A DNA stretch of 64,000 nt from a bacterium (GTDB lineage Bacteria > Patescibacteriota > Patescibacteriia > UBA10025): assembly GCA_021815445.1 (NCBI GenBank), contig JAKAGM010000002.1, forward strand, positions 31,373 through 95,372. Reading direction: 5' to 3'. Below are positions 3,454 to 38,219 of the stretch, in pieces. The notes under the pieces were generated by a model that saw only the letters and a program-made list of their open reading frames with translations, ran no database searches and was not told where the DNA came from. Position 1 is the stretch's first letter. Every line of letters starts with the position of its first letter. A program made the translations under genes and the position numbers.

Positions 3454-4527
3454 ATGAACATCCTTGATGACATGAAAAAAATTATACGGCTGGACCGGCA
3501 GAATATGCGCGGGTCTATTGACGCACTCCCTGACCAGATACGGCATGCATGGGCGGAGAGCAGGAAGATAAAATTTCCTGCCCGCTATGCTCAGGCAAAA
3601 AAAGTTGTCGTCGCAGGCATGGGCGGCTCCATCATCGGCGCTCATCTTTTAGAATCAGTTTTTGCCGATGAGTTCAAAGTTCCGTTTGTACGGCTCGGCG
3701 ACTATCGTTTACCAGCTTGGGTGGGTCGCGATACGCTGGTGATTCTCTCCAGCTATTCGGGCACTACAGAGGAGGTTCTCGCGATGGGCAAAGATGCGCT
3801 CGCACGCGGGTGCATGGTGGCGGGTCTATCCGCGGGCGGGACTCTTGCGCGGATGATGAAGGCCCGTCGGTTGCTGTGGTATCACATTGCTCCGACATTC
3901 AACCCTTCTAACCAACCCAGAATGGCTACCGGCTACATGGTTTTTGGGCTGCTTGGTTTATTGTCGCGGCTCCGATTCGTGCACCTCGGCAGCCGGGATG
4001 TAGAGCATATAGTTGCCACATTGCAAGCAAAGCACCACCATCTCGGAATCAAAAAACCGGTACGTAATAACATCGCAAAAACGATTGCCGCGAGACTTGT
4101 CGGCAAATATATCCTCTTTGTTTCTGCGGAACACTTAATCGGCAACGGGCATATCGCCGCAAACCAAATTAATGAGAATGCAAAACAGTTTGCCGCGTAC
4201 TTTTCCCTGCCGGAACTCAATCATCATCTCCTGGAAGCGCTCCGGTTTCCGCGTGAAAATCGGCGCCTGCTCACTGCCGTCTGCTTCCAATCACAGCGTT
4301 ATCACCCGCGGAACCAGCGCCGAGTAAATGCCACTGTCCGCATCCTCCAGCAACAGGGTATCCGCGCGATCATGGTCCCTGTGCGGGGGAAATCCAAACT
4401 TGATGAGGCATTACAAACTGTCCAGCTCGGTGCGTATTCCGGTTACTATCTTGCCATCCTGAACAGGCTAAACCCGGCGCCTATTACCTGGGTCGATGCG
4501 TTTAAGCGCATCATGGCCAGGGCGTAA
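3454..4527 (+). CDS. Bifunctional phosphoglucose/phosphomannose isomerase (SIS domain, archaeal-type PGI/PMI)
   Basis: VVVAGMGGSIIGAHLL and SSYSGTTEE motifs. The ~350-aa length fits the PGI/PMI family. Confidence 0.65.
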   Translation: MNILDDMKKIIRLDRQNMRGSIDALPDQIRHAWAESRKIKFPARYAQAKKVVVAGMGGSIIGAHLLESVFADEFKVPFVRLGDYRLPAWVGRDTLVILSSYSGTTEEVLAMGKDALARGCMVAGLSAGGTLARMMKARRLLWYHIAPTFNPSNQPRMATGYMVFGLLGLLSRLRFVHLGSRDVEHIVATLQAKHHHLGIKKPVRNNIAKTIAARLVGKYILFVSAEHLIGNGHIAANQINENAKQFAAYFSLPELNHHLLEALRFPRENRRLLTAVCFQSQRYHPRNQRRVNATVRILQQQGIRAIMVPVRGKSKLDEALQTVQLGAYSGYYLAILNRLNPAPITWVDAFKRIMARA

Positions 4528-4570
4528 GCGTTTCCATGCGCGCTTTGATGTAAGGGCTGATCTTTCCCGT

Positions 4571-6187
4571 ATGACAACGTCTCACGCCACCCTGTCATGG
4601 TTTCAGACTCACCGCCGTGTTATCGCGGCGCTTTGTCTATTTGCCTTCGCATTTGTATTTTTCCTGTGGCTACAGGATGACCCGACATTTGCGGACCCCG
4701 ACTCGTTTTATCACGCCAAAATGGCCCTGCTCATCCGCGATCAGGGAATCGTCAAAGATTTTCCCTGGCTCCAGGCCACCGTCCTCGCGAAATCTTACAC
4801 TGATCAGCACCTTTTATACCATATTGCCCTGATCCCGTTTGTAACTTTTTTCCAGCCCATTGTCGGGATTAAAATAGCTACTGTTTTGCTTGCCGCCGCC
4901 GTTGTTGAAATGGTGTATCTGCTGCTCTCTGCATTACGAGTCCGGTTTGCCGTGCTGTATGCGTTTATATTGCTTGCAATCGGTCCGTTTATCTTCCGCA
5001 TGAGCTTGGCGAAAGCCCCGAGTGTGTCCATGCTTTTTCTGCTCAGCGGAATATTGCTGATGTTCAAACGCAGACGGTGGTGGCTCTTTATTCTTTCGTT
5101 CCTCTACGTCTGGGCGTACGGCGGCTTTACCCTGTTGCTCGTCGCGGCGGCGATATGGAGCGGAATAGGGTTTTTTGAACAATTCATGCAATCTCCCGCC
5201 CGGATTGGGCGACGTCCCCTGGGTCTCATGATGCACTCGTTCGTGCGCAATGAACATGTCCGTACGGTTTTTTCCGTCTTTTCCGGGATTATCCTGGGCG
5301 TAGTCATCAATCCATATTTTCCGCACAACCTGTTTTTTTACTGGAGCCAACTTGTGCAGATTGGCATTATTAACTACCACTCGGTCATCGGCGTGGGAAA
5401 CGAATGGTATCCTTACCCGTTCATGGACCTGATCTCCAGCACGATATTTCTCACCGTCATCGTGATAATCGCGCTCGTGCTTTTTTCCGTCTTTCTCAGG
5501 TCGCAGCGCCGGCGCTCGTGGATGTTCTTTATCATGGCGGCGTTCTTTTTTCTCCTGACGTTAAAATCAAAACGGTATGTCGAATATTACGTGCCGTTTG
5601 GAATGCTTTTTGGCGCTACGGCTCTGGACACTTCACTCGGACGCATCGATTTCCGGCACTTTTTACGCGATGTCATGGGATGGTATTTTAAACATAAAGT
5701 ATTTGCCATGATTCTTATCGTTTATTTCCTCGTGACCCTTCCAGCCATTGCGGTGCGCGACACTGTCAGTATTAAAGGAGATCTTCGCGGAGGATCTTCT
5801 GTCACGAAATTTGCAGCGGCGAGCAGCTGGCTCGAGAACAATACCCCCGAGCATGCCGTCGTTTTTCATTCAAGCTGGGACGAATTTCCGCTGCTTTTTT
5901 ACCATAATACGCACAATTACTATATTGTCGGCCTCGACCCGACGTTTATGTATACGTACAACAAAGACCTCTATCAAAAAAATGTCGATATTACGACAGG
6001 CGTCGGTGTCCCCAAGATTCAGCAGGTACTCCAAAAAGATTTCAAGGCAAATTATGTTTTTATCGAAAAACACCACGGAGGCATGCACTCGCTGATCAGC
6101 GCCCTCCCCGACGCGAAACTTGTCTATGAGGATAGTGAAGCGTGGATCTATTATTTGCCGCCCGTGCAGAATGATTCCTCTTCCTAA
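4571..6187 (+). CDS. Polytopic membrane protein, GT-C-fold glycosyltransferase-like (G1)
   Basis: More than 10 predicted TM helices. The first extracytoplasmic loop has FADPDSFYHAKMA, a DxD-YH motif that resembles the acidic EL1 motif of GT-C enzymes. There is no WWDYG, so it is not an STT3/AglB. Start chosen at MTTSHATLSW to avoid overlapping the PGI/PMI gene. Confidence 0.4.
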   Translation: MTTSHATLSWFQTHRRVIAALCLFAFAFVFFLWLQDDPTFADPDSFYHAKMALLIRDQGIVKDFPWLQATVLAKSYTDQHLLYHIALIPFVTFFQPIVGIKIATVLLAAAVVEMVYLLLSALRVRFAVLYAFILLAIGPFIFRMSLAKAPSVSMLFLLSGILLMFKRRRWWLFILSFLYVWAYGGFTLLLVAAAIWSGIGFFEQFMQSPARIGRRPLGLMMHSFVRNEHVRTVFSVFSGIILGVVINPYFPHNLFFYWSQLVQIGIINYHSVIGVGNEWYPYPFMDLISSTIFLTVIVIIALVLFSVFLRSQRRRSWMFFIMAAFFFLLTLKSKRYVEYYVPFGMLFGATALDTSLGRIDFRHFLRDVMGWYFKHKVFAMILIVYFLVTLPAIAVRDTVSIKGDLRGGSSVTKFAAASSWLENNTPEHAVVFHSSWDEFPLLFYHNTHNYYIVGLDPTFMYTYNKDLYQKNVDITTGVGVPKIQQVLQKDFKANYVFIEKHHGGMHSLISALPDAKLVYEDSEAWIYYLPPVQNDSSS

Positions 6188-7397
6188 ATATTACCTTGCC
6201 GCAGGACTAGTCATGGCCGCTCTCGCAATAGTTTGGGGCGGTTTCGTCATGGCTCAACCAATCTACGATATCGGTGCAAAGTCTACACCTTTGGTACGCG
6301 ACCAACAGGAGACAATCAGTGTCTATTTTAATCGCGCCGAGTTCATCCCTCGTCATGAGTTTCCCTATTCCCATGTTCTGGAAGAATACCCTGTGCTTGG
6401 CGTGCTTTATATCAGTCTCCCTCGTCTGTTTACCCAGGATCCCGGCGGGTCCATGCAGATATTTTCATTCATGAGCCTGCTGGTCCTGTGCGCGCTGGTC
6501 GCAGTGACTTCCGCACTCCTGAGATTTTTTAAGCGATCTCCGTGGTATCTAACACTTTTTCTCCTGCCTGCAACGCTGTATTTTGCTTTTAACCGTTTTG
6601 ATATTCTCATTGCGCTTATTGTCCAGATAAGTCTGTACATGCTGGTTCGGCGACGGTATGCCTGGGCAATTTTCCTCCTTGCCATAAGTTTTTTTGTGAA
6701 ATGGTACGGCATTCTTTTCGTGCCCGTATATTTGGTATACATGAAAAATACTGTTGCCCCGGAGGTATGGCGAAAGTCATTTCGAAGGATGCTGCGGATC
6801 ATAGGGATAACACTGGTGGTTCCCACAGTCGTCTTATTCATCTTTGCGGGAGTTAACAGCATTCTTCCCTACGCGTTTCACGCCTCACGCGGTATCGAGT
6901 ATGGCAATGTTTTAGTTCCTTTTCTCGAGAGAATGTATCGTGTCCTTCCGCCTTCTCTCGTCCGTTTCCTGATGAAAGCGATTCCGCAGCTTCTTTTTGC
7001 CGGTCAGATTATTCTCCCGCTTGTTATGGCATTAAATCCTAGCGGTTTTATACAAAGAATCAAATCGCACCGCGATGTAGTGCGGTGGATGGTTATTATT
7101 GTCCTTCTTTTCCTCCTTTTCGGGAAATTTTATTCGCCGCAATTTATCCTTTGGTTATTGCCCCTCCTTATTCTTCTCGTACGGCGGTTTTCTGACATCT
7201 TGTTGTTTATTACACTTGACCTCATACACTACCTGTCGTTTCCGCTCATCTATATTCAGTCAGGGTATAATTCCGACGCTTACGCGTTAATGGCGTTTAT
7301 TCGCACGCTCGTATACTGCATCGTGCTGTTCAAAGCACTCCCCGCTACCCGCGCATGGTTTCCCGCAACATCATTTGTAGATACCCAAGAAGGATGA
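6171..7397 (+). CDS. Polytopic membrane protein, putative GT-C/DUF2029-like glycosyltransferase (G2)
   Basis: About 11 hydrophobic segments and no soluble domain. Start uncertain; MIPLPK overlaps the end of G1. Confidence 0.35.
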   Translation: MIPLPKYYLAAGLVMAALAIVWGGFVMAQPIYDIGAKSTPLVRDQQETISVYFNRAEFIPRHEFPYSHVLEEYPVLGVLYISLPRLFTQDPGGSMQIFSFMSLLVLCALVAVTSALLRFFKRSPWYLTLFLLPATLYFAFNRFDILIALIVQISLYMLVRRRYAWAIFLLAISFFVKWYGILFVPVYLVYMKNTVAPEVWRKSFRRMLRIIGITLVVPTVVLFIFAGVNSILPYAFHASRGIEYGNVLVPFLERMYRVLPPSLVRFLMKAIPQLLFAGQIILPLVMALNPSGFIQRIKSHRDVVRWMVIIVLLFLLFGKFYSPQFILWLLPLLILLVRRFSDILLFITLDLIHYLSFPLIYIQSGYNSDAYALMAFIRTLVYCIVLFKALPATRAWFPATSFVDTQEG

Positions 7398-8143
7398 GAC
7401 ACGGAAAAAAAATTATCGCCGTACTGCCCGCGTACAATGCCGAAAAAACGCTGCGCCAGACGCTTCGTGACATTCCTCGCGACGTGGTCGACGATATTAT
7501 ACTCGTTGATGACGCGAGCGCCGACGGTACGGCTTCCCTGTCCCGCTCACTCGGGCTCACGACTATAGTGCATCCGCGCAATCTCGGCTATGGGGGAAAC
7601 CAAAAAACTTGCTACACGGCGGCACTTCATGCCGGGGCGGATGTCGTCATCATGATCCACCCTGACCACCAGTACGATCCGACGCTTGTGCCTGCGATGG
7701 TCGAACCTCTGGCGGCAGGGGAAGCCGACGCAGTTTTCGGTTCGCGGATGCTTGTACCCGGCGGGGCGCTTTCCGGCGGCATGCCACAGTGGAAGTACAT
7801 TGCGAACGCCTTTTTAACCCGGGCGGCCAATGTGTGCATAGGAACGCATCTGAGCGAATACCACTCGGGCTTTCGCGCGTATTCGCGCGCAGTTTTAGAG
7901 CGCGTCCCGTATTCGCTGAATTCGAATAATTTTGTTTTTGATACTGAGATTATCGCCCAGCTCGCTGTATACAACTTTCGTATAAAAGAGATACCTATCC
8001 CCACCAAATATTTTAAAGACGCGTCTACAGTGGGTTTTTGGAAAGGGGTGCAGTACGGTCTCAATATTTTCGGCGTCCTTATGCGCTATCAGCTTCACCG
8101 GCTGGGTATCATCCGGACAAAGCAATTCAGTAAAACCGGTTAA
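7394..8143 (+). CDS. GT2 family polyprenyl-phosphate sugar synthase (Dpm1/ArnC/GtrB-like)
   Basis: IIAVLPAYNAEKTL...ILVDDASADGT and the DxD region VIMIHPDHQYDP, over ~250 aa. Typical of dolichyl/undecaprenyl-phosphate mannosyl- or glucosyltransferases. Confidence 0.7.
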   Translation: MRHGKKIIAVLPAYNAEKTLRQTLRDIPRDVVDDIILVDDASADGTASLSRSLGLTTIVHPRNLGYGGNQKTCYTAALHAGADVVIMIHPDHQYDPTLVPAMVEPLAAGEADAVFGSRMLVPGGALSGGMPQWKYIANAFLTRAANVCIGTHLSEYHSGFRAYSRAVLERVPYSLNSNNFVFDTEIIAQLAVYNFRIKEIPIPTKYFKDASTVGFWKGVQYGLNIFGVLMRYQLHRLGIIRTKQFSKTG

Positions 8144-8210
8144 TTCCGGCAGTCTATCTTTAATTATCTATTTCCATTATTATTCTTGATATAAGTATTT
8201 TTACATTTGT

Positions 8211-9869
8211 ATGGATGCCAATCTCGAACCATATTCCCTGACCTTAAAGTCACTTTGGAAATCTATCGGCAGAGGTGAATGGATATTTATCTCATGCATT
8301 ATATTAATTTCCGTAGCTGTTACGACTTTTCCCTATCTCTATGGGGCCGTGACAGCTCCATCTGGCATGACATACACAGGGATCCATAATCTCACGCCCG
8401 GAGACACGAATGCCTACCTCTCACTCATTGCGTCCGTCAAAGAGGGGACAAATACGTTTGTTAACCTCTTTACCAGCGAGCACCAGTCCGTCGTCGACGT
8501 GAACCCGTTATGGTGGAGTGTCGGAATGTTCGCCAAAATATTTCATCTTTCACCGCTTGCCAGTTTCCACGCAACACGAATCATCCTGATAGGCGTATTA
8601 GTTGTCGTGGCGTATCTTTTTCTCACCCTATGCTTCTCGTCGCGCGCTCGGCGCAAAGTAGCGCTCGTGGTGATTTGCTTTGCATCGGGGGTAGGTTTAT
8701 TCGTGGGTCCATTTGTCTACAACGAAGCTCACCGGATTAATTACCCGGTTGATGCATGGGTGCCTGAAAGCATCCCTTTTTTAATCATGTACAATTCACC
8801 GCACTTCATAGCGTCCCTAATACTGATAGTCATCTGTATCGCACTTATGTACATGGCATTTGTCACGGAAAAGTTCGTCTATTGCATCGCTGCCGGCGTA
8901 GCAGGATTTCTCCTCACCTGGTTCCACCCTTTCGATACGCCCACGGTAGTATGCGTGGTCGGAGTATTTTTGCTTTATCTGATGGTCAAAAGGAAAAAAG
9001 TTTACCGAAGATGGCTCTTGCAGTATTCTCTATATATTCTTCTGATAGCGCCCGCCGCGCTGTATCTTTTTTTCCTTATATATAAAGATCCCGTCATGGC
9101 ATTGTGGCAACAGCAAAATATCCTCCTTTCACCTTCAATCTGGATGTACCTTTCGGCGTTCGCGCTTCTTCTCCCGTTCGTTGTGTATGCGCTCATTCGC
9201 AATGACCTCAAAAGATCCGGAATCACGCGACTTCTGATAGTATGGATCGCCGTCTCAGCTATTCTCTTATACGTTCCGGTGAATTTCCAGCGGAGGATGG
9301 TCGAAGGATTATTCATCCCGGTCGCCATTTTGGCTGCAGATGGAATCGTGACGCTCTGGGAACGGTTAAAGATTTCGGCTGTACAGCATGGGTTACAATC
9401 ACTGCTCCTTTTCGGACTGGTGGTATTCTTGCCGTTGACGAATTTACAGATAATTGGTCAGGATGTAAGCCAATATGCGACAATGAAGGATTTTCCATTT
9501 TATCTTACGTCAGGCGAGATGGACACTCTCTCTTGGATAAAGAACGCTACTGATACCCAGTCAATTTTTCTCTCGAGCAGGTATTTCGGTAATTTTATTC
9601 CCGCGTACGCGATCCGCCGGGTATATATAGGGCATGGGCCGCAGACAATAGATCTCGAGCGTAAGATTCCTGAGGTTTACAATTTCTACACAGGAGCATG
9701 GGACGATGCCGCCCGCGAGCGTTTCTTAAAGGAAAAAGGCATTGCCTACGTGGTCATCGGACCCCGTGAAGAAGCATACGGAAGCACTGATCTCGCGAAT
9801 AAACCATTTTTGAAACTTGTACATTCGACATCGGATACTCGTGTGTATGCGGTTATCGCTCATCGCTAG
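8211..9869 (+). CDS. Polytopic membrane protein, GT-C-like (G3), tandem paralog of G4
   Basis: More than 10 TM helices. An N-terminal loop carries GDTNAYLSL...NLFTSEHQS. The C-terminus IPAYAIRRVYIGHGPQT is paralogous to 9903..11456. Confidence 0.4.
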   Translation: MDANLEPYSLTLKSLWKSIGRGEWIFISCIILISVAVTTFPYLYGAVTAPSGMTYTGIHNLTPGDTNAYLSLIASVKEGTNTFVNLFTSEHQSVVDVNPLWWSVGMFAKIFHLSPLASFHATRIILIGVLVVVAYLFLTLCFSSRARRKVALVVICFASGVGLFVGPFVYNEAHRINYPVDAWVPESIPFLIMYNSPHFIASLILIVICIALMYMAFVTEKFVYCIAAGVAGFLLTWFHPFDTPTVVCVVGVFLLYLMVKRKKVYRRWLLQYSLYILLIAPAALYLFFLIYKDPVMALWQQQNILLSPSIWMYLSAFALLLPFVVYALIRNDLKRSGITRLLIVWIAVSAILLYVPVNFQRRMVEGLFIPVAILAADGIVTLWERLKISAVQHGLQSLLLFGLVVFLPLTNLQIIGQDVSQYATMKDFPFYLTSGEMDTLSWIKNATDTQSIFLSSRYFGNFIPAYAIRRVYIGHGPQTIDLERKIPEVYNFYTGAWDDAARERFLKEKGIAYVVIGPREEAYGSTDLANKPFLKLVHSTSDTRVYAVIAHR

Positions 9870-9902
9870 CCGTATGCGTCTCCGTATCCATGGCATGGTG
9901 CT

Positions 9903-11456
9903 ATGATTTTTTCTCCGGCGGACAAAAAGTTTTTGACAGTTGTTACTGCAATTATTGTCATTATTGCGGCGATACCTTTTATCTACGCAGTGATGTCGAC
10001 ACCCAACGGCATGGCCTATAGCGGGAGGCATGCGCAAAACAGCGGAGATTACGCGGTGTATTTCTCCCAGATGGAGCAGGCTCGGCAGGGGCATATGCTA
10101 TTTTTAAATTTGTTTACCAGCGAGAGCCATGCGCGTACCATCTTTGATCCCGTCTGGCTCGTACTTGGTTGGATATCGCGGGTTACCGGATTATCTATTC
10201 CTCTCACCTTTCATGTAGCCCGGCTCATAGCAATCCCGCTATTTATATCGGTCGCCGCGCGCTTTGTGTGGACTATGCTTGATGATGCCCGTGAGCGGCG
10301 AGTCGCATTGCTCATGATCAGTTTCGGGGGCGGTATCACCGGCTATGCGAAGACGACCGATGCTTCAGCGTTTCATGCCATGCAGTTTTCCCCCCATGTG
10401 GTGCTCTCCCTCACTTTTTTGCTGGCAATATTTCTACTTATGTATCGCAGCTTTCATCTGCACATTATCCGATATGCGGTATACGCGGGATTCCTCGGGC
10501 TTGTATTATTTTTTTTCCACCCGTATCACATTTCGACAACCTATGGAATACTCGGTGCATACGCCATGGTAATGATCTTCCTTCGGAGATCACCAGCGTG
10601 GAGTATCATCAGCTCCTTCGCTGTCTATGTCGCCCTCTCAGTTCCGGCTGTCCTGTATTATTGGTTGTTCTTTAAACTTTCTCCTATCGGCAGCGGATGG
10701 TTGGCACAAAGCGATTCACTTATGCACGCAAGACCCCCGTGGGAAATTCTTTGGTCATTTGCCCCATTAGTTCTACTTGCGTTGATCGGGTACAAAGTCC
10801 TTTTAAACGAGCGACGTGAACAGGCGATATTCATGGTAACCTGGATCGTCATCGCTCTTACACTGATGTGGACTCCATGGTTTTTTCGCATGCGCACGAT
10901 TGGTGGAATGACCATTCCTCTGAGTATAGCGTCTGCGGCGGGTATCGTGTGGCTTCTGCGAATTGTGGCGCTCAGGAAGTCCGCTATGGCGTGGTCCATG
11001 GTGTTGATTATCGCCATTATCGGTACCACTATGCCCGTGCACGGTATGACGTTTATTCACAACATAGCTGTTTACGCTCAGCAGGTCGATTATGCGTATA
11101 TCTCCGATGAACTTGTCGATGTGATACGGGTATACAGACAGCAGGCGACTGATACCGACGTACTTCTCGCTTCTCCGTATACGAGCAATATTATTCCGGC
11201 ATTAACGGGTCGAAAAGTGTATATAGGCCACGGCATTCAAACCCTTTCTTCACATCAAAAAGTGAAGGACATTAACGCATTTTTCTCCCGGGCGGCGAAT
11301 GATGATCCTACATATACAGAACTTCGTTCATTGGGGATTACTTTTCTTCTGATTACCCCAAAGGAGCAGGAACTCGGGATGCTGCCACTCGATAATGCGC
11401 CGTTTCTGCAGATAGCTGCGCGAGAAGGGCCTTATTCTCTTTATCGTGTGCGCTGA
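9903..11456 (+). CDS. Polytopic membrane protein, GT-C-like (G4), tandem paralog of G3
   Basis: Shares SGDYAVYFS...NLFTSESHA and IPALTGRKVYIGHGIQT with G3. Confidence 0.4.
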   Translation: MIFSPADKKFLTVVTAIIVIIAAIPFIYAVMSTPNGMAYSGRHAQNSGDYAVYFSQMEQARQGHMLFLNLFTSESHARTIFDPVWLVLGWISRVTGLSIPLTFHVARLIAIPLFISVAARFVWTMLDDARERRVALLMISFGGGITGYAKTTDASAFHAMQFSPHVVLSLTFLLAIFLLMYRSFHLHIIRYAVYAGFLGLVLFFFHPYHISTTYGILGAYAMVMIFLRRSPAWSIISSFAVYVALSVPAVLYYWLFFKLSPIGSGWLAQSDSLMHARPPWEILWSFAPLVLLALIGYKVLLNERREQAIFMVTWIVIALTLMWTPWFFRMRTIGGMTIPLSIASAAGIVWLLRIVALRKSAMAWSMVLIIAIIGTTMPVHGMTFIHNIAVYAQQVDYAYISDELVDVIRVYRQQATDTDVLLASPYTSNIIPALTGRKVYIGHGIQTLSSHQKVKDINAFFSRAANDDPTYTELRSLGITFLLITPKEQELGMLPLDNAPFLQIAAREGPYSLYRVR

Positions 11457-11691: not shown

Positions 11692-13632
11692 TTAAAAGAG
11701 TCTCGCAGCATCCCCTGCCGGTTTTTCTTTATCGATATGCATGCTTGCCGAGCGTAATCCGTCGAGTGTCATGTAGCCCGTGACGTCAACAAGCTGGATG
11801 TCGGCATGTTCAATATTCGCTCCCGCGGGCTTCGCAAACCAGTAGTTCATCTGCACATTCTGTCCTGGCATCCACGTTGATGCCGGGTACAACCCGTAGG
11901 CGAGCGGATAGAGCTTGTTATTCACGACGTTCCCATGGTCATCAGTAAGCCTGATAAGCATCTGGTAATTTTTTTGTATCTGTCCCGTGGCTTGCATCAC
12001 CAGAGTAATGCCGAGCTCATCACTTCCCTGGGGCAGAGATTGCCAGCCAAGGAGTTTCGCGTTCGGCCCGAGCTCTTGAGGTGCTCCCTGCAGGTCGGTG
12101 GGTGGAACGCTTATTATGCGCACGAGCGGATTCACCTCTGTCGTTCGGCGGGTATAAAGAACTACTGTATCAAATATCTGGGTCGGCACGAATCCCCGGT
12201 CCAAAAGCTCACGGATATGCTCCGGTCCGGATGTTTTAGCTCGAGCATATGGCGCTATGGAGAACGATTGGAGGTGATAGATGAGAAAATCGTTGTAATC
12301 AACCAGTACTGTGTCTGCATCCTGAGGGATAGTATACGGGGCCAGAGAATATTGCCGTGTTCCTTCGAATGCATAGTGGAGCGAATACACCTTGTCCCGT
12401 CCGGAAAGGTCAGTAAGGGGCGCAAAACTCGCGACCACCGATGCATCAGACGGTACAGCCGCAATCGCCTGTGCCAGCGCATGCTGGTTTTGGTCACGCG
12501 TGGTGGATGTTGAAATCAGCGGAAGGAGGGGTCCGAACGTGAGGGCGCCATAGATGGTCGCTGTCGTCATGAGTATGAGACTGAGATTGAGCATATGCGG
12601 CACTTGTCTGAATATTTTCGGCGGCTTTTCCTTCAATTTCTGCAGACCCATGATGGTGGCCATGAATATAAAGGGTATAAGGAGGGCGCTGTAATGAGTT
12701 TTTAGCACGAGCTCTGTAAAGCCGGTAAGGAAAAGCTGCAAGAAAATCAGAAGCGATGGAATCAATAGACGGGGCCTTAACAACGGCAGACCAACAAAAG
12801 GCAGGAGCAATGCAATAGCCATGACAATCGTGTTAAATGACATGAGTTTGTTGAATAGCGAAGGGATGCTGGAGAGCAAAGAAACTAAAGATGAATGTGC
12901 GCTTGCCTGCAGTGTCGGGTAGTATGCAAAATATTTGTACGCGCCGTCAGGGTTCATGTGAGAAATGAACGCAAGCGACCCGGCAAACCATGCAGTGCCG
13001 AGAAGCAAAGGAATTATCACCCACTTCTTTGTTCGACGATCGCACAGGGCGAGCACGCCGAACATGAATACCACGAGTGCGACGTCTTCGCGTACAAGAA
13101 AGCTTATTATGAGAAAGATGAGGAATGGGGTGAACTTGTTTTCGAGATACATCGCGACTGCCCAGGCGAGAAATAGTATCCCGAACGGCAGAATATGAAA
13201 TTCAAATGCGTTGGTATTTTGAACAAACGGGTTTGCTAAATATAACAACGCAATGCCAGCAGCGATCCCTGGCCCGAGCTTTGATTTGGCAATCCGGTAT
13301 ATCGGCCACGCAGCGAGCGCGATGCCGACAGTTTGCATCAGGAGAAGCGTGAAGGGCGTTTTGCTTATCATATAGAGCGGGAGCAGAAGAATGATCAACG
13401 GTTCAAAATGGTCTCCGAGGTAGCTCTGCGGATGTATAGTCATGCCGAAGAGATCACCGTGTGAGGAATGCCAGAACACCTGATTATAAATCGCCAGGTC
13501 AATAGCATTGTACTTATGGAGCGTAAGTTTCACAAAACCCAGGAAAGCGAATACCGCTATGTAGACAACCATGCCTCCTACGACAAATAGCGCACCTCTC
13601 CGTTCCATTATTTTTCTCAGCCAATATGCCAT
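11692..13632 (-). CDS. DUF2079-like large integral membrane protein, putative GT-C
   Basis: AIDLAIYNQVFWHSSHGDLF...HFEPLI resembles the DUF2079 N-terminal motif. 646 aa, polytopic. Confidence 0.4.
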   Translation of the reverse strand: MAYWLRKIMERRGALFVVGGMVVYIAVFAFLGFVKLTLHKYNAIDLAIYNQVFWHSSHGDLFGMTIHPQSYLGDHFEPLIILLLPLYMISKTPFTLLLMQTVGIALAAWPIYRIAKSKLGPGIAAGIALLYLANPFVQNTNAFEFHILPFGILFLAWAVAMYLENKFTPFLIFLIISFLVREDVALVVFMFGVLALCDRRTKKWVIIPLLLGTAWFAGSLAFISHMNPDGAYKYFAYYPTLQASAHSSLVSLLSSIPSLFNKLMSFNTIVMAIALLLPFVGLPLLRPRLLIPSLLIFLQLFLTGFTELVLKTHYSALLIPFIFMATIMGLQKLKEKPPKIFRQVPHMLNLSLILMTTATIYGALTFGPLLPLISTSTTRDQNQHALAQAIAAVPSDASVVASFAPLTDLSGRDKVYSLHYAFEGTRQYSLAPYTIPQDADTVLVDYNDFLIYHLQSFSIAPYARAKTSGPEHIRELLDRGFVPTQIFDTVVLYTRRTTEVNPLVRIISVPPTDLQGAPQELGPNAKLLGWQSLPQGSDELGITLVMQATGQIQKNYQMLIRLTDDHGNVVNNKLYPLAYGLYPASTWMPGQNVQMNYWFAKPAGANIEHADIQLVDVTGYMTLDGLRSASMHIDKEKPAGDAARLF

Positions 13633-13725
13633 GGCATTATTGTACAGAAAAAGCGCGCTAAAACAAACACCCTCTCCGTTGCCGGAGAGAGTGCCGTATA
13701 ACGTTGAAATCTAGGTGAAAAGTCA

Positions 13726-14085
13726 CTAGTTGGTGACGTTTGAGGTAGTCTGTACGACGAAGATGACGATTGCCCAAGCGAGCAGGACGACGATGAGGCC
13801 GATGACTGCCGCTGAAATAATCTTTTTCGCACTGGCTACTTTTTCTTCGTTTCCGCCGGCTGTCATCCACTGGAATCCACCGATGAGAATCATAATGACC
13901 GCAACGAGGCCGAGAAGGCCGAGCGCCCATTGGATAATCTTAATGACTGTGCTTTGGAGACCTGCAGTTCCGAGGCCAAACGTTGAACCAAAGTCCTCAT
14001 TGATGAGGGCGGTAGCTCCTGCGCTTAATGGCAGCAAAAAAATGCCGAGCGCGAGAGAAGCTGATAATATTTTTTTCATTTTCAT
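13726..14085 (-). CDS. TrbC/VirB2-like pilin-like protein P1
   Basis: Signal peptide followed by two TM helices around the motif ILIGGFQWMTAGGNEEKV. The start ATG-AAA-ATG lies after GGAGGTG. The tail VVQTTSNVTN is Ser/Thr-rich. Confidence 0.55.
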   Translation of the reverse strand: MKMKKILSASLALGIFLLPLSAGATALINEDFGSTFGLGTAGLQSTVIKIIQWALGLLGLVAVIMILIGGFQWMTAGGNEEKVASAKKIISAAVIGLIVVLLAWAIVIFVVQTTSNVTN

Positions 14086-14133
14086 AATCTCACCTCCTTC
14101 CATCGAGTGAGTATAAGTAACCTCACTGAGTGT

Positions 14134-14162
14134 ATATAAGCATTTTTCAATCTAAATGTCAA
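14134..14162 (-). promoter_or_regulatory. Sigma70-like promoter driving P1 (TTGACA-N17-TTATAT on the minus strand)
   Basis: Minus-strand sequence cttgacatttagattgaaaaatgcttatatacact, about 50 nt upstream of the P1 start. Confidence 0.45.
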
Positions 14163-14211
14163 GTTTTCTGTGTAAATAAAGGGGTTTTTCAGTAAAACAG
14201 GGATCGAAAAA

Positions 14212-14559
14212 CTATGTACTGACCGAGTTCAGCGAGTCGAAAATAAACTTAAGTACAGTATAGCTCAAAGTGATTGCAACGACACCGATTGTCGCCCACA
14301 GGAGAGTGTCCCGGCCTTTCTTGACGAGGGTCGGATTGCCGCCCGACATCAAGAGTTCGAATCCCCCGAGGATAAACATAAAGAGGGCAAAAATGTCTAC
14401 CGCGCCAAGCACGAGACGCAGCGACCGCACGACAACGGTGATGAGATCCGCATTATTAAAATCTTTGCCCAGGGGATTCGGCAGTGTCACATCGGCTTGA
14501 GCGATAAGCGGGAAGAGGCAGAGTACCAGGAGAGAAAAGGCGAGTAAATGACGTTTCAT
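14212..14559 (-). CDS. TrbC/VirB2-like pilin-like protein P2
   Basis: Signal peptide and FILGGFELLMSGGNPTLVKKG core, paralogous to P1. Confidence 0.55.
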   Translation of the reverse strand: MKRHLLAFSLLVLCLFPLIAQADVTLPNPLGKDFNNADLITVVVRSLRLVLGAVDIFALFMFILGGFELLMSGGNPTLVKKGRDTLLWATIGVVAITLSYTVLKFIFDSLNSVST

Positions 14560-14608
14560 AGTTGCGGGGTAAAAGGATTATTTCGAAAGAAAAATATTTT
14601 TCTTGATA

Positions 14609-15529
14609 TTAAGGCTGGCACTGGGTAATTGAGGCGCACGAAGTTTGATCGCGGAGGTAATGGTCGCTTGCTACCGTACTGCATCCGCGAACCGGCTCAG
14701 GCGGGACACAATCATGCTTTGTCGTATCGTAAGGGACACAGCATCCCTGATCGAGATTCTGACACTGCTCATATTGCGAACACTCTGTCGCCTGGATCCA
14801 TGCCGTGGAGCAATCACTGCCGATACAATACGTTTTATCTGTCATGTACTTATCACATCCCGTTTTTGACTCGGCGTCAAGGCACCCCTGGAGAGTGACG
14901 CAGCAACCCGTACCCGGTGTAGTTACGGGAGTGATCTGGCTCCCTGTGCCTCCTCCCCACCACGGTTTTGCGCTGTTGGTCCCGGGAAAAACATTTGAAC
15001 TCCCGGTGAGAATAAAGACGACAAAGTTTGCCCACATCCAGGCGAGGATGAGAATAATAATCACTCCCAGCACGACGCCAAGGATCATGCGCTTGCCTTG
15101 CTGTATTTTTTCCGGGTTGCCTCCCGACGTGATGAGGTTAAATCCTCCCCAGATGAAAAATAGCATCGCGACTATTGGGAGGGCTATGAGCGCCGAGGAG
15201 GACATATTCACGAATGTCTGGACGAAGTCGTCGGGTTGGCACGGGCGCACTTCCCTGCAGTACTTGTCGTATTTCTTGCATGTTTTACTGTCAGACGGAC
15301 AGTCTGATAAAAGCTGTTTTGAAGTCGAATCAATGACGTAGACAGGGGTCTGGTCGCAAAAAGGAAGGAAATAAAGCCGCGGGGGAGTTAATTCTTCTAT
15401 GGGCTGTTTCGAAACCTCTTTACATGTTGGATTAATTGCCGTGCTCGCCGCAAGCGACGGGTGCGCAAACACAAGTGATCCGGCAATCACCGCCATGAGC
15501 AGAAAAAATGTTACTGATCGCAGGCGCAT
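14609..15529 (-). CDS. TrbC/VirB2-like pilin-like protein P3 with N- and C-terminal Cys-rich extensions
   Basis: Core FFIWGGFNLITSGGNPEKIQQGKRMI is paralogous to P1 and P2. The C-terminal ~110 aa contain about 16 Cys (GTGCCVTLQGCL...CCVPYD...) and a Ser/Thr/Gly-rich linker. Confidence 0.5.
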   Translation of the reverse strand: MRLRSVTFFLLMAVIAGSLVFAHPSLAASTAINPTCKEVSKQPIEELTPPRLYFLPFCDQTPVYVIDSTSKQLLSDCPSDSKTCKKYDKYCREVRPCQPDDFVQTFVNMSSSALIALPIVAMLFFIWGGFNLITSGGNPEKIQQGKRMILGVVLGVIIILILAWMWANFVVFILTGSSNVFPGTNSAKPWWGGGTGSQITPVTTPGTGCCVTLQGCLDAESKTGCDKYMTDKTYCIGSDCSTAWIQATECSQYEQCQNLDQGCCVPYDTTKHDCVPPEPVRGCSTVASDHYLRDQTSCASITQCQP

Positions 15530-15533
15530 AATT

Positions 15534-16907
15534 TTAATAACTTTGTTCTATCTCCTTGGACGCGAAGGTAATCGCGTCAGGAAGTGTCTGCGTCCCTGTC
15601 GTCACTGCGCGCACCATATTAGCAAAAGCTGTTTCTGCCGCGCCGGGATCCCTGCCATGGTACCAGCTTTTTGCATTGACAGCCTCCTGAGCAAAAGTGG
15701 AAATCAGCGGATCAGCGTCCTGGATATCCACATTGACCAGCGAGGTCAGCGCCGCCGTCTTTCCCGACGTCACGAGGTATTTAACCACGACATCGGGACG
15801 GGAAAGGTATTGGATAAAGTCCCAGGCTTCATTCGCATGCGTCGATCGTTTCGCCACTGATTGCACCCAGTAATTTGCATAATAAACGGGTCGCGCGGGA
15901 TCAACTTGGGGCATCGGGCCCACAGACCAATTGAGCTTCGACGCCTGGTTTTTTATGATATCCCTTTGGTATTCGTACCCGAAGAAAAATGCGGTTTTAC
16001 CCGCAATAAATGCTTCGAGAGCATCAGGCATCTGGCTATCCCATGAATGCACCTGTTTCGTAGGGAGCGCGAAATCGGTGTAGAACCTCAGCGCTTCCAG
16101 GCCTGGCTGTGAGGTAGCATTGTCTGCCGCACTGTTGGCGAATGCCATTTTGCCTTTGGCATCCACCATTGTCGCCCCATTTTGCATCATCAGCGCTGAA
16201 ACAATATCAAAAACGCGCGGAATATTGTTACCAGTGCCAAGCGCCGCGCCTGACTGGACTATTTTTCCCGTCGAATCCAGGATGGTCAGCTTGGGCACGA
16301 TATCGATGAATTCGTTCCATGTGCTCGGCGGCTGGGTAATCAATGCGTAGTTCAAAAGGTCTTTGTTATAAAATAACGTGAGTGTATCCATGCTCTGCGG
16401 CAGTCCCCATATCTTGCTTTGGAGGATGACATCTTGGGGGACTACGCTGACAAAACGATTGCGGACCTCATTCAAAGTAATCGACGGGGCGGCCTTGTAG
16501 GAAATTGTCAGCTCTTGTTTGATGCCAAGCGGCCGAGAAATCTGGTACCAGGCCATTCGGGTCGATGCGGGCATCGGCGTGAGGAATTCATTTGCCTGGA
16601 ATTTTCCTATCCATGAATTCGGCAGCGCAAAAATATCAGGTCCGGCTCCCCGCGCCCACGCCTGGATGAGTGAATTTTCATATTCCTCCATTCTAAATTT
16701 TTTATAGGTAATGGTGACGTACGGATGCAATTGTTTATACGCGCTGATAACTCCCGCATATGACGATTCGTCGTCAAAGACTCCCCACCATTCCAAGCTT
16801 ACTGCCGGGGGCGCCTGCGTTTTATTTCCGCCTATCATGAACAGAACGACGGCAATGATCGCCACGACTACCGCTCCCCCGATAATAATTAACGTTCCGC
16901 GCTTCAT
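15534..16907 (-). CDS. Extracellular solute-binding protein (SBP family 1, sugar-type) with N-terminal TM anchor; no cognate permease nearby
   Basis: LEWWGVFDDESSYAGVISAYKQLHPYVTITYKK...GAGPDIFALPNSW is the typical SBP_bac_1 N-terminus. No permease or ATPase genes are adjacent. Confidence 0.6.
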   Translation of the reverse strand: MKRGTLIIIGGAVVVAIIAVVLFMIGGNKTQAPPAVSLEWWGVFDDESSYAGVISAYKQLHPYVTITYKKFRMEEYENSLIQAWARGAGPDIFALPNSWIGKFQANEFLTPMPASTRMAWYQISRPLGIKQELTISYKAAPSITLNEVRNRFVSVVPQDVILQSKIWGLPQSMDTLTLFYNKDLLNYALITQPPSTWNEFIDIVPKLTILDSTGKIVQSGAALGTGNNIPRVFDIVSALMMQNGATMVDAKGKMAFANSAADNATSQPGLEALRFYTDFALPTKQVHSWDSQMPDALEAFIAGKTAFFFGYEYQRDIIKNQASKLNWSVGPMPQVDPARPVYYANYWVQSVAKRSTHANEAWDFIQYLSRPDVVVKYLVTSGKTAALTSLVNVDIQDADPLISTFAQEAVNAKSWYHGRDPGAAETAFANMVRAVTTGTQTLPDAITFASKEIEQSY

Positions 16908-17788
16908 AGACTCTGAGTAAGCTTCTTAAGATATTTGCGAAGATCAGTCCCGAGTTCCTGGCGCCTCAACGCAAATTCAATGTTAGCCTTCAGGTACTCA
17001 AGCTTATTTCCCGTGTCGTAGTAACGCGCGTTTTTTATCTCGACAGCGTTCACCGGCTCCTGCGCGATGAGCATATTTATGGCGTCCACGAGCCAGATCT
17101 CGCCGTCCCGTCCGGGCCTCGTCTGTGCCAGGCATGAAAAAATAGACGGAGTGAAGATATACCCGCCGTGCGCGGCGAGATTGGACGGTGCGTCCTCTGG
17201 TTTGGGCTTTTCAACGATTTTATTCAGGCGCCAGATATTTTTTTTCACATGTTCTCCGTCTGCAATGCCGTATTTTGAAAGTTCCCGGCGGTTCTTTATC
17301 GTAATGGCGCTGACGACGGATCCGCCTATTTCCTCGTACACTTCCATCATCTGCTGGAGTCGCGGAGGTTCGGAGGCAATAAACTCATCCCCCCAGAGCA
17401 CTGCAAAGGGCTCGTCGCCCACGACATGCCGGGCGCAAAGAACCGGCGTCCCATTGCCATAGGGGCCTTTTTGGCGGACATAAATAAAATTTGCCATTTC
17501 AGCAATTTTTCGGACTTCCTCGAGCTCTTTCATTTTCCCCGCCTTTTCGAGACGTTTTTCAAGTTCAAAAGGATAGTCGAAATGGTCCTCGATAGATTTC
17601 TTTTGCCATCCCGTCACGATGATAATGTCCTCGATGCCCGAGCGCACCGCTTCCTCAACGACATACTGTATGATGGGCTTGTCGACAATCGGCAACATCT
17701 CTTTCGGTTGGGCTTTTGTCGCAGGCAAAAAACGCGTGCCATAACCAGCCGCGGGGATGACTACTTTTCGAATTTTCTTTTTCCCCAT
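16904..17788 (-). CDS. galU: UTP--glucose-1-phosphate uridylyltransferase
   Basis: KVVIPAAGYGTRFLPATKAQPKEMLPIVDKPIIQY is the GalU signature. Confidence 0.85.
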   Translation of the reverse strand: MGKKKIRKVVIPAAGYGTRFLPATKAQPKEMLPIVDKPIIQYVVEEAVRSGIEDIIIVTGWQKKSIEDHFDYPFELEKRLEKAGKMKELEEVRKIAEMANFIYVRQKGPYGNGTPVLCARHVVGDEPFAVLWGDEFIASEPPRLQQMMEVYEEIGGSVVSAITIKNRRELSKYGIADGEHVKKNIWRLNKIVEKPKPEDAPSNLAAHGGYIFTPSIFSCLAQTRPGRDGEIWLVDAINMLIAQEPVNAVEIKNARYYDTGNKLEYLKANIEFALRRQELGTDLRKYLKKLTQSL

Positions 17789-27111: not shown

Positions 27112-27337
27112 TCTACGGCTCGCGCCGAGATCATCATGCCCCGAGATCATCTCAACGGGCTCTTTTTTATCAAAAGATCACGGGTGATATATCGCCCAGC
27201 GCAGCTTGTGCTTAATAAAAATGCTTTTTTTGCAATATATCTGCTTGACAATTCACATTGACGCATGTTAACACACACTAATGACTGTATAACAGAACTA
27301 GACGTAAACGATGTTCATTGATAAGGAGAAGTCAGAG

Positions 27338-28621
27338 ATGTCGAAAAGACGAGTCGTTATTACCGGCTTGGGTGCGGTCACCCCACTCGGGAACAATGTT
27401 CAGGAATTGTGGGCCAACTTGCTGCAGGGCAAAAACGGCGTCGGCCCGATTACCCGTTTCGACGCCGGCGCCTTTACCACCCGAATCGCCGCCGAGGTCA
27501 AAGACTTTGACCCGATGCCGTGGCTGGACGCCAAGGAAGCCTCGCGGATGGATCGCTGCACGCAGTTTGGCATCGTGGCAGCGGAACAAGCACTCCAGGA
27601 CGCTGGGGTGAAGCCAAGGGTTCAACCTGGAGAGCAAGGCAATGCTGACGCTGAGGTCATACTAGACCGCGCTCGCGTCGGGGTCATTATCGGCTCGGGT
27701 ATTGGCGGGCTGGAAACGACTGCAGCCAACTGCCAAACTCTGTTCACGCGCGGACCTCACAATGTCAGTCCGCTCATGATTCCCCGGATGATCCCGAACA
27801 TCACCTCGGGCATCGTTGCCATACGGTACGGCTTCCGCGGGCCCAACTACTGTACCGTGTCTGCCTGCGCATCGGCGAACCATAGTATAATCGGCGCAGT
27901 CCACTCCATCGTGCTGAGTGAAGCGGACATGGTCATCACTGGAGGAACGGAAGCGGCCATCATCCCCCTGGGCGTGGCCGGATTCGCCAAAATGCGGGCG
28001 CTTTCAAGGCGAAACGATGAGCCGGCACGCGCTTCTCGGCCCTTTGACCGCGAACGGGATGGATTCATTATGGGTGAAGGGGCGGGCATCCTCGTCCTGG
28101 AAGAACTGGAGCATGCCCTGGCCCGGAAAGCGAACATTTACGCCGAGGTGCTGGGAGTAGGCATGTCCGCCGATGCCTATGACCTTACCGCGCCCGACCC
28201 CGATGGAGTCGGCGCCTGGCTCGCGATGATTCGGGCACTCAACAGCGGCGATATCTCTTTGGAGGAAGTGGACTACATCAACGCCCACGGCACTTCCACC
28301 TCGCTCAACGATCCGATCGAAACCAGGGCCATCAAACGACTCTTCGGTGCGCGGGCCCACGATATTCCTGTGTCCTCCACCAAGTCGATGATCGGGCATT
28401 TGCTCGGCGCCGCCGGAGGGGTCGAACTCATTGCCACCGCTCTGTCAGTGGCTCAAGGCATGATTCATCCGACGCGGAACTATGAGTTCCCGGACGATGA
28501 CTGCGACCTGGACTATGTGCCTGAGGGGGCCAGGCAGCATCCGATCCGCGTCGCCCTGTCAAACGCCTTTGGCTTCGGCGGGCACAATGCCACCATCGCC
28601 GTCGGTGCATACCGACAGTAA
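27338..28621 (+). CDS. fabF: Beta-ketoacyl-ACP synthase II
   Basis: RRVVITGLGAVTPLG, active-site Cys in TVSACASANHS, NAHGTST and GHLLGAAG. AAGGAG ribosome-binding site. Confidence 0.85.
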   Translation: MSKRRVVITGLGAVTPLGNNVQELWANLLQGKNGVGPITRFDAGAFTTRIAAEVKDFDPMPWLDAKEASRMDRCTQFGIVAAEQALQDAGVKPRVQPGEQGNADAEVILDRARVGVIIGSGIGGLETTAANCQTLFTRGPHNVSPLMIPRMIPNITSGIVAIRYGFRGPNYCTVSACASANHSIIGAVHSIVLSEADMVITGGTEAAIIPLGVAGFAKMRALSRRNDEPARASRPFDRERDGFIMGEGAGILVLEELEHALARKANIYAEVLGVGMSADAYDLTAPDPDGVGAWLAMIRALNSGDISLEEVDYINAHGTSTSLNDPIETRAIKRLFGARAHDIPVSSTKSMIGHLLGAAGGVELIATALSVAQGMIHPTRNYEFPDDDCDLDYVPEGARQHPIRVALSNAFGFGGHNATIAVGAYRQ

Positions 28622-32631: not shown

Positions 32632-32782
32632 GTATTTGTAATAATTAGTAGCTACTCTCAATGAAATTATACACCCGCAAAACTAATATACAACATATGC
32701 ATTCATCAATTCTGTGGGTTAATAAATACCAAAAAACAGACCGAACACACGTTTCCCAGCGTACAATTGGTTTATTGATGAC

Positions 32783-37394: not shown

Positions 37395-38219
37395 TTATTT
37401 CGCCGAAACCGTGATCGGGGTCGACTTCGCTTCTATGCCGTTAACGAAGACCTTCACAAAATAATTCCCCGCTGTTGACGGCAAGGCGAAACAACAGGTG
37501 CCATTGGTGCCGGTTTGCAGGTTCGAAGGCGCGCTCTGCGGCTCAATCTCCCGTCCGGTACTGTCGGTTATTGAGAATGTTGATGCATCTCCTGCCTTAA
37601 AGGTTCCGGTAACGCTCAGGCCGAATTGGTCGCCGACCCGAAAGCTAGTGGTAGTCTCATAGGTATTAGTCGGACTGAAGGCAGTGCCTGCCGGGATACG
37701 CTGGAATTCCACCTTAGAGACCTGGCCGACGGAATTAGTGTTAGCTCCAACGCCGGCATTTACGGTCCCGTTAGTGTTTCCACCGGCCGCGGAGTTGGCG
37801 TTTGTTTTTGGTATGACAGTCAGTGTAATATTTCCGCAATCACGATCTGCGCAAATAAGATGGTAGGTGCCGCCCTGGTCATTATCCTGGATAATGGTGC
37901 CAAAAACGCCGTTAGTCGAAGCTGCAGCCGGCACTTCCCGGAACTTGAAATTTACCGGCTGGTCATCGCTCGTCAGGCGGATCTCTATCGTGTCGCCGGC
38001 ATGAAAGGTCATGGTTTTATAGTTCAGCTGGCCGTTTACCAGCTTGAGGTTAAAGACCTTATTGGAGCCGGTCAACGTATAGGGCGCCTCCGTCACGACT
38101 GCATTAATGTTTTTTGCAGTGTTGGCCGTAGTGGTCGCGGTTTTCTTAGTACAACCGGAGAGTATCAGCGCTGCCATAGCTAAAAGAACACAACTGCCGA
38201 GAATGAACTTTTTGTTCAT
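37395..38219 (-). CDS. Lipoprotein, hypothetical
   Basis: LILSGC lipobox. The C-terminal NGTCCFALPSTAGNYFVKVFVNG motif is shared with the next gene. Confidence 0.45.
   Translation of the reverse strand: MNKKFILGSCVLLAMAALILSGCTKKTATTTANTAKNINAVVTEAPYTLTGSNKVFNLKLVNGQLNYKTMTFHAGDTIEIRLTSDDQPVNFKFREVPAAASTNGVFGTIIQDNDQGGTYHLICADRDCGNITLTVIPKTNANSAAGGNTNGTVNAGVGANTNSVGQVSKVEFQRIPAGTAFSPTNTYETTTSFRVGDQFGLSVTGTFKAGDASTFSITDSTGREIEPQSAPSNLQTGTNGTCCFALPSTAGNYFVKVFVNGIEAKSTPITVSAK

Follow-up and report, generated by a model that had tools for sequence, protein, structure and literature searches.

A tandem array of VirB2-like pilin genes with a cysteine-rich lead pilin in a Patescibacteria chromosome

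What would a bacterium do with three conjugative-pilin-like genes in a row when no secretion machinery is encoded around them? The question is raised by a stretch of contig JAKAGM010000002.1 (assembly GCA_021815445.1), in which three small genes, here called P3, P2 and P1, follow one another as tandem open reading frames (ORFs) on the minus strand; 'the window' below means this whole stretch, 64,000 nucleotides long. Patescibacteria, the lineage of its host, account for a large part of the diversity of bacteria and spend their lives attached to other microbes. The reading that we favour, and consider probable, is that the three genes are a chromosomal array of VirB2-like pilins (Pfam PF18895) that serves epibiosis and is built into a structure by the core of a type IV secretion system (T4SS) encoded elsewhere in the genome. 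The genes are as follows.

13726..14085, minus strand: P1, short cysteine-free VirB2-like pilin, candidate major subunit (PF18895, homologs, structure model)
14212..14559, minus strand: P2, second short pilin paralog, 115 amino acids (PF18895, local profile, orthologs)
14609..15529, minus strand: P3, long lead pilin, 306 amino acids (PF18895, cysteine map, structure model)

Three divergent pilins of one family

Each of the three proteins has an N-terminal signal peptide of Sec type I with an AXA-type site (AGA, AQA and SLA), followed by a pair of long hydrophobic helices; the loop between them carries the motif GGFxxxxxGGN, the versions of which are IGGFQWMTAGGN, LGGFELLMSGGN and WGGFNLITSGGN. 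This shared architecture, proposed in an earlier sequence-only reading of the window, is seen in all three pilins. The ORF of P1 called mechanically spans 13726–14103, and its true start is likely the ATG at 14085, because this codon lies 4 nt after GGAGGTGA; the product would then have 119 amino acids. The single cysteine of P2 lies inside the signal peptide. P2 is 27% and P3 31% identical to P1.

Against the Pfam family T4SS_pilin (PF18895; gathering threshold 26.6 bits), P1 scores 51.4 bits and P3 33.2 bits, both above the threshold, and P2 falls slightly under it (24.2 bits, E 3.5e-5). When one genome per species was scanned, 57 related loci turned up, and a pilin-core hidden Markov model (HMM) made from related loci matches all three pilins with E-values between 9e-28 and 3e-22 (6.6e-23 for P2) and no further gene in the window. 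P1 has 671 homologs, the best 120 of which are all at least 61% identical; where they are named (NCBI, JGI), the names are mostly 'pilin', 'VirB2 component (pilin)' or 'hypothetical protein'. The AlphaFold2 (AF2) model of P1 is a helical hairpin (H40-75/H80-118) with a predicted local distance difference test (pLDDT) score above 90, and the model of P3 contains a confident hairpin of the same kind (H99-134/H139-175).

Profile–profile comparison extends the relationship to conjugative pilins. With either 98 Patescibacteria pilins or 81 P1-type pilins plus P2 as the query, hhalign matched eight genuine VirB2/TrbC proteins of mating-pair formation type T (MPF_T) at 85–90% probability (E 2e-6 to 6e-6), co-linearly across both helices, and the reversed and 30 column-shuffled controls reached at most 0.7%. 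Judged from these profiles, the pilin core of the array is remotely homologous to VirB2/TrbC. The earlier proposal of three tandem VirB2/TrbC-like paralogs is borne out by the PF18895 matches together with this profile–profile match: as far as their sequences tell, P1, P2 and P3 are a genuine tandem set of VirB2-like (conjugative-pilin-like) proteins, and they are anciently diverged paralogs.

A search of 72,556 plasmids with P1 (tblastn) found nothing, and Rfam and tRNA scans gave nothing relevant. The locus has a G+C content of 45–53% and the window one of 49%, a comparison that gives no compositional sign of horizontal transfer.

A conserved core pilin and a variable lead pilin

The expression signals around P1 are the following.

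14134..14162, minus strand: promoter-like site of P1, TTGACA (14162-14157), 17 nt, TTATAT (14139-14134), read from the sequence
14090..14097, minus strand: Shine–Dalgarno sequence of P1, GGAGGTGA, 4 nt before the ATG, read from the sequence
13666..13695, minus strand: intrinsic-terminator-like hairpin after P1, a 13-bp stem followed by TGTTTT

P1 had been credited with a near-consensus promoter of its own and a good ribosome-binding site. Both TTGACA-17-TTATAT and the ribosome-binding site are present, but 'near-consensus' is generous for the −10 element, which agrees with TATAAT at three of six positions (four of six if read as TATATA with an 18-nt spacer) and has a TG 1 nt upstream of the hexamer; a consensus scanner did not call the site. 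Across 17 loci, a TTGAC(A/T)-17/18-TATAAT-like promoter stands upstream of the P1-type gene in 15, seven of them with a perfect 12/12 match, and a ribosome-binding site of the form (A)AGGGGGTGA or GGAGGTGA precedes the gene in all 17, (A)AGGGGGTGA being the equivalent in the other 16. This conserved promoter appears to be undescribed. No evident ribosome-binding site was seen upstream of P2.

Conservation differs among the three. Orthologs of P1 are 63–85% identical, as conserved as the GalU protein encoded in the same operon, those of P2, which always sit between P3-type and P1-type genes, 51–76%, and those of P3, the most divergent type, 34–47%. Because the promoter and ribosome-binding site are kept in orthologs, a terminator follows the gene and its conservation equals that of GalU, P1 would appear to be the major subunit, with expression of its own. 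N-glycosylation of its C-terminal tail was considered and rejected: the N-x-S/T sequon is not conserved, being present in 35 of 81 orthologs.

P3 is built differently, with domains on both sides of the pilin hairpin.

aa 1-27 of P3: signal peptide
aa 28-98: N-terminal ectodomain with six cysteines (C36-C97)
aa 99-176: pilin hairpin
aa 177-207: WWGGG/Gly-Thr linker, WWGGGTGSQITPVTTPGT
aa 208-261: GCC module 1, eight cysteines
aa 262-306: GCC module 2, six cysteines
14612..14908, minus strand: the C-terminal tandem 'GCC' modules as a whole, from module dissection

The sequence-only reading had given P3 a cysteine-bearing N-terminal domain and, beyond a linker, an extension with some 16 cysteines. 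That layout stands and the number was slightly off: P3 has 20 cysteines, six in the N-terminal ectodomain and 14 in the C-terminal extension (C209-C304). Modules of the extension follow the pattern CC-x5-10-C-x7-8-C-x9-20-C-x5-6-C, with a median length of 44 residues among the 82 distinct six-cysteine modules collected from relatives. Their number varies, from one to nine GCC starts per P3 relative, with eight or nine in the longest (551-666 aa); seven full-length P3 relatives were found. The module has no Pfam match, its HMM matches only P3-type lead pilins among the locus sequences collected here, and AF2 models it poorly (pLDDT about 42-73). Searched against 1.84 billion cluster representatives, the P3 C terminus gave six matches at E ≤ 1e-3, five of them to P3-like pilins; the sixth, to a protein of 3,523 aa, is spurious and due to a repeat. 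The six-cysteine GCC repeat module appears to be undescribed. The 3,523-aa protein (P0010) carries 11 copies of a GYVRGDTGLCIG(S/N/A)DCRT.WP repeat, and its match to the CIGSDCSTAW stretch of P3 is probably a coincidence.

Patescibacteria are enriched in disulfide machinery of the MdbA/VKOR type (10.1101/335083), which makes extracytoplasmic disulfides plausible. As the variable, cysteine-rich and surface-exposed product of the lead gene, P3 is a plausible minor, tip or adhesin subunit.

Long or lead pilins of other Patescibacteria fuse the PF18895 hairpin to other domains, namely PG_binding_1, PKD, SLT lytic transglycosylase or fn3/Ig-like domains (L020:2520-3635, L045:6348-9923, L053:8189-9436 and L058:7080-9662); the pilin-hairpin protein of L045 has 1,191 residues and 69 cysteines. 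Elsewhere in the window, two adjacent genes (37395-38219 and 38269-39294, both on the minus strand) encode proteins of 274 and 341 residues that have an N-terminal signal or anchor and no family match; they look like paralogous cysteine-containing surface proteins because both have the C-terminal motif NG(T/L)CCF..P..G.Y.

An operon shared with a solute-binding protein and envelope-glycan genes

The operon partners of the array had gone unmentioned in the sequence-only reading: two genes upstream and one downstream.

16904..17788, minus strand: GalU, UTP-glucose-1-phosphate uridylyltransferase (TIGR01099, 346.4 bits; cut-off 326.8)
15534..16907, minus strand: membrane-anchored family-1 (sugar-type) solute-binding protein (SBP; SBP_bac_1, 101.9 bits)
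11692..13632, minus strand: DUF2079 polytopic membrane protein, downstream of the P1 terminator (PF09852, 184 bits)

The end of GalU and the start of the SBP gene share 4 nt, and the SBP stop codon lies 4 nt before the start of P3. The SBP has distant MalE-type and other sugar SBPs among its matches in the Protein Data Bank (PDB). The DUF2079 protein gives a weak match to a family of cell-surface glycopolymer formation and is probably related to surface glycopolymers.

Comparison of synteny in loci L002-L031 and L037 shows the order GalU, SBP, P3-type, P2-type, P1-type, DUF2079 to be fixed in 19 loci of the same clade, and orthologs of all three pilin types occur in the same order in at least 14 genomes. 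The SBP–pilin link reaches further. In 33 distinct loci, which span ABY1, Paceibacteria-type lineages and one Saccharibacteria metagenome-assembled genome (MAG), the gene immediately before the first pilin encodes an SBP homolog, with a median gap of 4 nt (at most 25 nt in 29 of the 33). In these loci the first pilin has a median of 294 residues and 16 cysteines, against 132 residues and no cysteine for the other 116 pilins. GalU homologs occur in 23 related loci, and in all of those with an SBP the GalU gene stands immediately before it; DUF2079 follows the array in 18. Because the loci were sampled with P3-core patterns, all these frequencies carry a bias. Neither the window nor 76 upstream neighbours in 20 loci contain an ATP-binding cassette (ABC) permease or ATPase (BPD_transp, sugar-ABC ATPase). 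The array literature searched makes no mention of SBP linkage or of cysteine-rich or domain-fused lead pilins; both the operon of GalU, SBP, lead pilin, further pilins and DUF2079 and the rule that the lead pilin is cysteine-rich or domain-fused appear to be undescribed.

Next to DUF2079, on the plus strand at 4496-11456, runs a series of large proteins, mostly without a family match and presumably membrane proteins: one of 563 aa with a weak STT3-like oligosaccharyltransferase match, one of 425 aa, a GT2 glycosyltransferase and paralogs of 552 and 517 aa. Their genes are kept beside the pilin operon in relatives, and together with 11692-13632 on the minus strand they look like a surface-glycan or glycosylation cluster. 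In five Paceibacteria-type loci (L028, L030, L040, L045 and L062), gyrA lies just ahead of the SBP–pilin array, and genes for S1 and FtsH are close by; this position may recall the placement near the origin that has been published for T4SS genes.

Assembly, rival readings and known systems

Every related-locus record that carries a taxon name belongs to Patescibacteria or one of its candidate phyla, the closest named being Kerfeldbacteria of the class ABY1, and the host of the array is a Kerfeldbacteria-like member of Patescibacteria class ABY1. P3 is encoded, with every residue identical, on contig DAIENG010000002.1 (359 kb) of assembly GCA_027341205.1. The remaining records are labelled only 'bacterium' or 'uncultured Gammaproteobacteria', the latter in MAGs labelled 'uncultured Gammaproteobacteria bacterium' (L007, L015, L019, L023-L027, L035, L048, L055 and L056). 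On loci that are typical Patescibacteria pilin arrays, such labels are probably placeholders or errors.

In such a host, T4SS-free surroundings are no surprise. A survey of Patescibacteria described 441 VirB2 arrays of 2–11 genes with a mean within-array identity of 25% (PMC12102498, Quinonero-Coronel et al. 2025). It defined an array as 2–11 divergent pilin genes, in tandem or with one gene between, in a Patescibacteria genome, a description that matches the three tandem divergent paralogs of Patescibacteria origin seen here. It found pilin genes near virB4 in just 1,135 of 1,948 assemblies, and in its Table S3, which numbers genes by their order in the assembly, three ABY1 assemblies (GCA_000990355.1, GCA_000991205.1 and GCA_000992085.1) have tandem VirB2 genes hundreds of genes away from TrsD-VirB4(-VirB3), scored as 'not associated'. 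Because the arrays of these three ABY1 assemblies sit so far from virB4, the lack of a T4SS core in the window is expected. The absence of machinery, which the sequence-only reading had held up as a puzzle, is real and loses its strangeness: Pfam scans and a Patescibacteria VirB4 HMM were negative in the window as claimed, tandem arrays are already known for Patescibacteria, and T4SS-free surroundings are typical of ABY1.

On the favoured reading, P1, P2 and P3 would leave the cytoplasm through Sec and sit in the single membrane as hairpins whose N and C termini both face outward. P1 would be the structural subunit present in abundance. Translational coupling would keep the synthesis of P3 in step with that of the SBP, and P3 would join or anchor the structure by the same hairpin as P1 and P2 and display two disulfide-bonded, fast-evolving ectodomains as a host-contact (adhesive or tip) element. 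Extraction and polymerisation would fall to a TrsD-VirB4-VirB3-type T4SS core whose genes lie elsewhere in the genome, an arrangement seen in the three ABY1 assemblies, and the resulting surface filament or channel extension would serve an epibiotic lifestyle rather than conjugation.

Several observations weigh against this account. To our knowledge, a pilus has never been seen for the PF18895 pilin family of Patescibacteria, and ectodomains as large as those of P3 may be incompatible with helical packing. A search of the T4SS_pilin and TrbC models, as proposed in the sequence-only reading, gave a divided result: PF18895 recognises these proteins, with P2 slightly under its cut-off, but PF04956 (TrbC) gives no significant direct match to P3 (E 0.13, 13 bits against a cut-off of 27.9) and none to P1 or P2. 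The profile of 98 pilins found nothing significant among PDB sequences (TraM of pKM101, E 0.53), and fold searches with the monomer models returned generic helical hairpins only, with no diagnostic match. One related locus (L002 / L011; GCA_044868145.1, JBIOWE010000004.1) has P3-type and P2-type genes with no P1-type gene between P2 and DUF2079, which would be odd if P1 were an indispensable major subunit. By Pfam, no VirB4, VirD4 or VirB6 occurs among 40 ORFs of the window, including all of at least 500 aa, which are ordinary chromosomal genes; the VirB4 HMM, made from Patescibacteria loci, matches nothing in the 64 kb, no T4SS component was found in about 82 kb of the 359-kb contig DAIENG010000002.1 (the window with 10-kb flanks), and none lies within 10 kb of any SBP-type locus. 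VirB4 occurs within 10 kb of the array in five sampled loci only, three of Microgenomates type (labelled Shapirobacteria or Levyibacteriota, or syntenic with them) and two from Saccharibacteria. Finally, the published table scores VirB4 as negative in two of the four readable Kerfeldbacteria assemblies and positive in the other two (PMC12102498). The window also has an unannotated cluster at 33.4-41.3 kb, in which no T4SS or type IV pilus genes were found.

That half of the readable Kerfeldbacteria assemblies are without VirB4 is one reason to consider display without any T4SS, in which the VirB2-like hairpin would be a two-pass anchor or small oligomer exposing terminal domains, with no VirB4 machine and no pilus. 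We regard this as unlikely, and the same holds for its corollary that P3 shows its cysteine-rich modules with P1 and P2 as accessory membrane partners. It would agree with the lack of T4SS genes near all 33 SBP-type loci, with VirB2-type matches in assemblies scored as VirB4-negative, and with lead pilins elsewhere that bear PKD, fn3/Ig-like, PG_binding_1 and SLT domains, typical of anchored surface proteins. However, VirB4-negative MAGs may be incomplete, the profiles tie the array to VirB2 pilins that do polymerise, and the same family lies inside T4SS clusters in Saccharimonadia and Microgenomatia and is essential in the one lineage tested; a protein such as P1, free of cysteines and ectodomains and with a very strong conserved promoter, is unlikely to be a mere anchor. 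That the genes are chance hydrophobic ORFs without function, or type IV (PilA-type) pilins, is very improbable, having in its favour only their small size and hydrophobicity. Chance or non-functional ORFs are refuted by conservation (three ortholog types in the same order in at least 14 genomes, 671 homologs of P1) and by the domain assignment. Type IV pilins are out, since the signal peptides are of Sec type I (AXA) without the G/FTLIE prepilin motif, there are two transmembrane helices instead of one N-terminal helix, and Pfam gives T4SS_pilin and no type IV pilin family.

The neighbouring genes suggest a further possibility, that the array works with the co-translated orphan SBP, GalU, DUF2079, the neighbouring large membrane proteins (one of them weakly STT3-like) and GT2 as a binding or uptake and envelope-glycan module. 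As an explanation it seems to us quite unlikely, and so do both of its variants, a filament or conduit that captures host saccharides and pilins that are themselves glycosylated surface fibres; it is, however, compatible with the favoured model and does not exclude it. The SBP–pilin adjacency across several classes with its 4-nt median gap, the recurrence of GalU upstream and DUF2079 downstream, the resemblance of the SBP to sugar-binding SBPs with no ABC permease or ATPase partner seen locally, and the STT3-like protein, GT2 and other large membrane proteins alongside all point this way, as does a published speculation that the Patescibacteria T4SS pilus is an uptake conduit (PMC12857230). 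Yet adjacency is no proof, GalU and the SBP may be a sugar-metabolism pair that shares an operon, the sampling with P3-core patterns biases the frequencies, and the sequon in the P1 tail is found in fewer than half of the orthologs.

Three further observations concern other parts of the window and its surroundings. At 27311-28621 (plus strand) lies a full-length beta-ketoacyl-ACP synthase of the FabF/KAS II type, an unusual gene in Patescibacteria, which are generally said to lack fatty-acid synthesis. The minus-strand gene at 30013-32661 encodes a secreted subtilase (Peptidase_S8) of 882 aa that carries TIG and FG-GAP repeats and is likely a surface protease or adhesin. Beyond the position of the window's right end, a stretch of about 4.5 kb (L071:3073-7545, DAIENG010000002.1) has only one gene called, of 82 aa, and such a gene-poor stretch is unusual for a compact genome.

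For the favoured model of an epibiosis array, the locus offers a division of labour, with a core pilin that is conserved and has a strong promoter and a lead pilin that is hypervariable and cysteine-rich, and the conserved coupling to an SBP and envelope-glycan genes gives a lead to the possible ligand or cargo of the structure. A bolder suggestion, which we make tentatively and think doubtful, is that the arrays of ABY1, Paceibacteria and some Saccharibacteria are an undescribed module with a translationally coupled, membrane-anchored orphan sugar-type SBP, a contact organelle that senses or captures host glycans, possibly without a dedicated VirB4 in VirB4-negative lineages. The first pilin might then, as tentatively, be a modular display scaffold for GCC disulfide repeats or for domains of the PKD, Ig/fn3-like, PG-binding or lytic transglycosylase kind. 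Should the coupling prove functional, it would open a direct experimental way into a long-standing question, how such epibionts contact and exploit their hosts.

Among known systems, the VirB2-like arrays already published for Patescibacteria (PMC12102498; PMC10633639; PMC7427843) resemble the present one in their tandem small PF18895 proteins with signal peptides, in low paralog identity (27–31% here, mean 25% there) and in being chromosomal, in a monoderm ultrasmall bacterium and often remote from virB4. The array of Southlakia epibionticum (SEML1_0006-0019; PMC10633639, Wang et al. 2023), which is essential, and the 'Sec-secreted array' of TM7x (PMC7427843, McLean et al. 2020) lie inside a T4SS cluster, whereas the present array is embedded in a GalU-SBP-...-DUF2079 operon; further, unlike in the published arrays, the product of its lead gene is extended by GCC six-cysteine repeats.

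The VirB2/TrbC pilins of Gram-negative MPF_T systems, such as Agrobacterium VirB2 and TraM of pKM101, share the signal peptide, the two hydrophobic helices with a short polar loop, and a mature core of about 70 residues that aligns co-linearly in profile–profile comparison. By contrast, the Patescibacteria pilins have a loop about 7 residues longer, with a GGNPEK motif, and P3 has ectodomains of about 70 aa and about 130 aa (linker included) of a kind unknown in classical VirB2. Genuine plasmids have virB2 flanked by virB1 and virB3, whereas the present array stands beside none of virB1, virB3 and virB4, in a host without an outer membrane. Mbov_0395 and MMCAP2_0565 of Mycoplasma integrative and conjugative elements (NCBIfam NF045849) are likewise two-helix pilin-like T4SS proteins of wall-less or monoderm organisms, and NF045849 is the top NCBIfam match of all three pilins; the scores of P1, P2 and P3 (31.9, 16.1 and 19.9 bits) are nevertheless under the cut-off of 40, and the present array has no such element around it. 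Bartonella and Anaplasma also have tandem divergent VirB2 paralogs, believed to vary the contacts made at the cell surface (work cited in PMC12102498). The paralogs of these diderm intracellular pathogens are antigenic variants that are alike in size, whereas P1, P2 and P3 represent stable types, each with its own orthologs, and differ from one another in architecture and expression signals.

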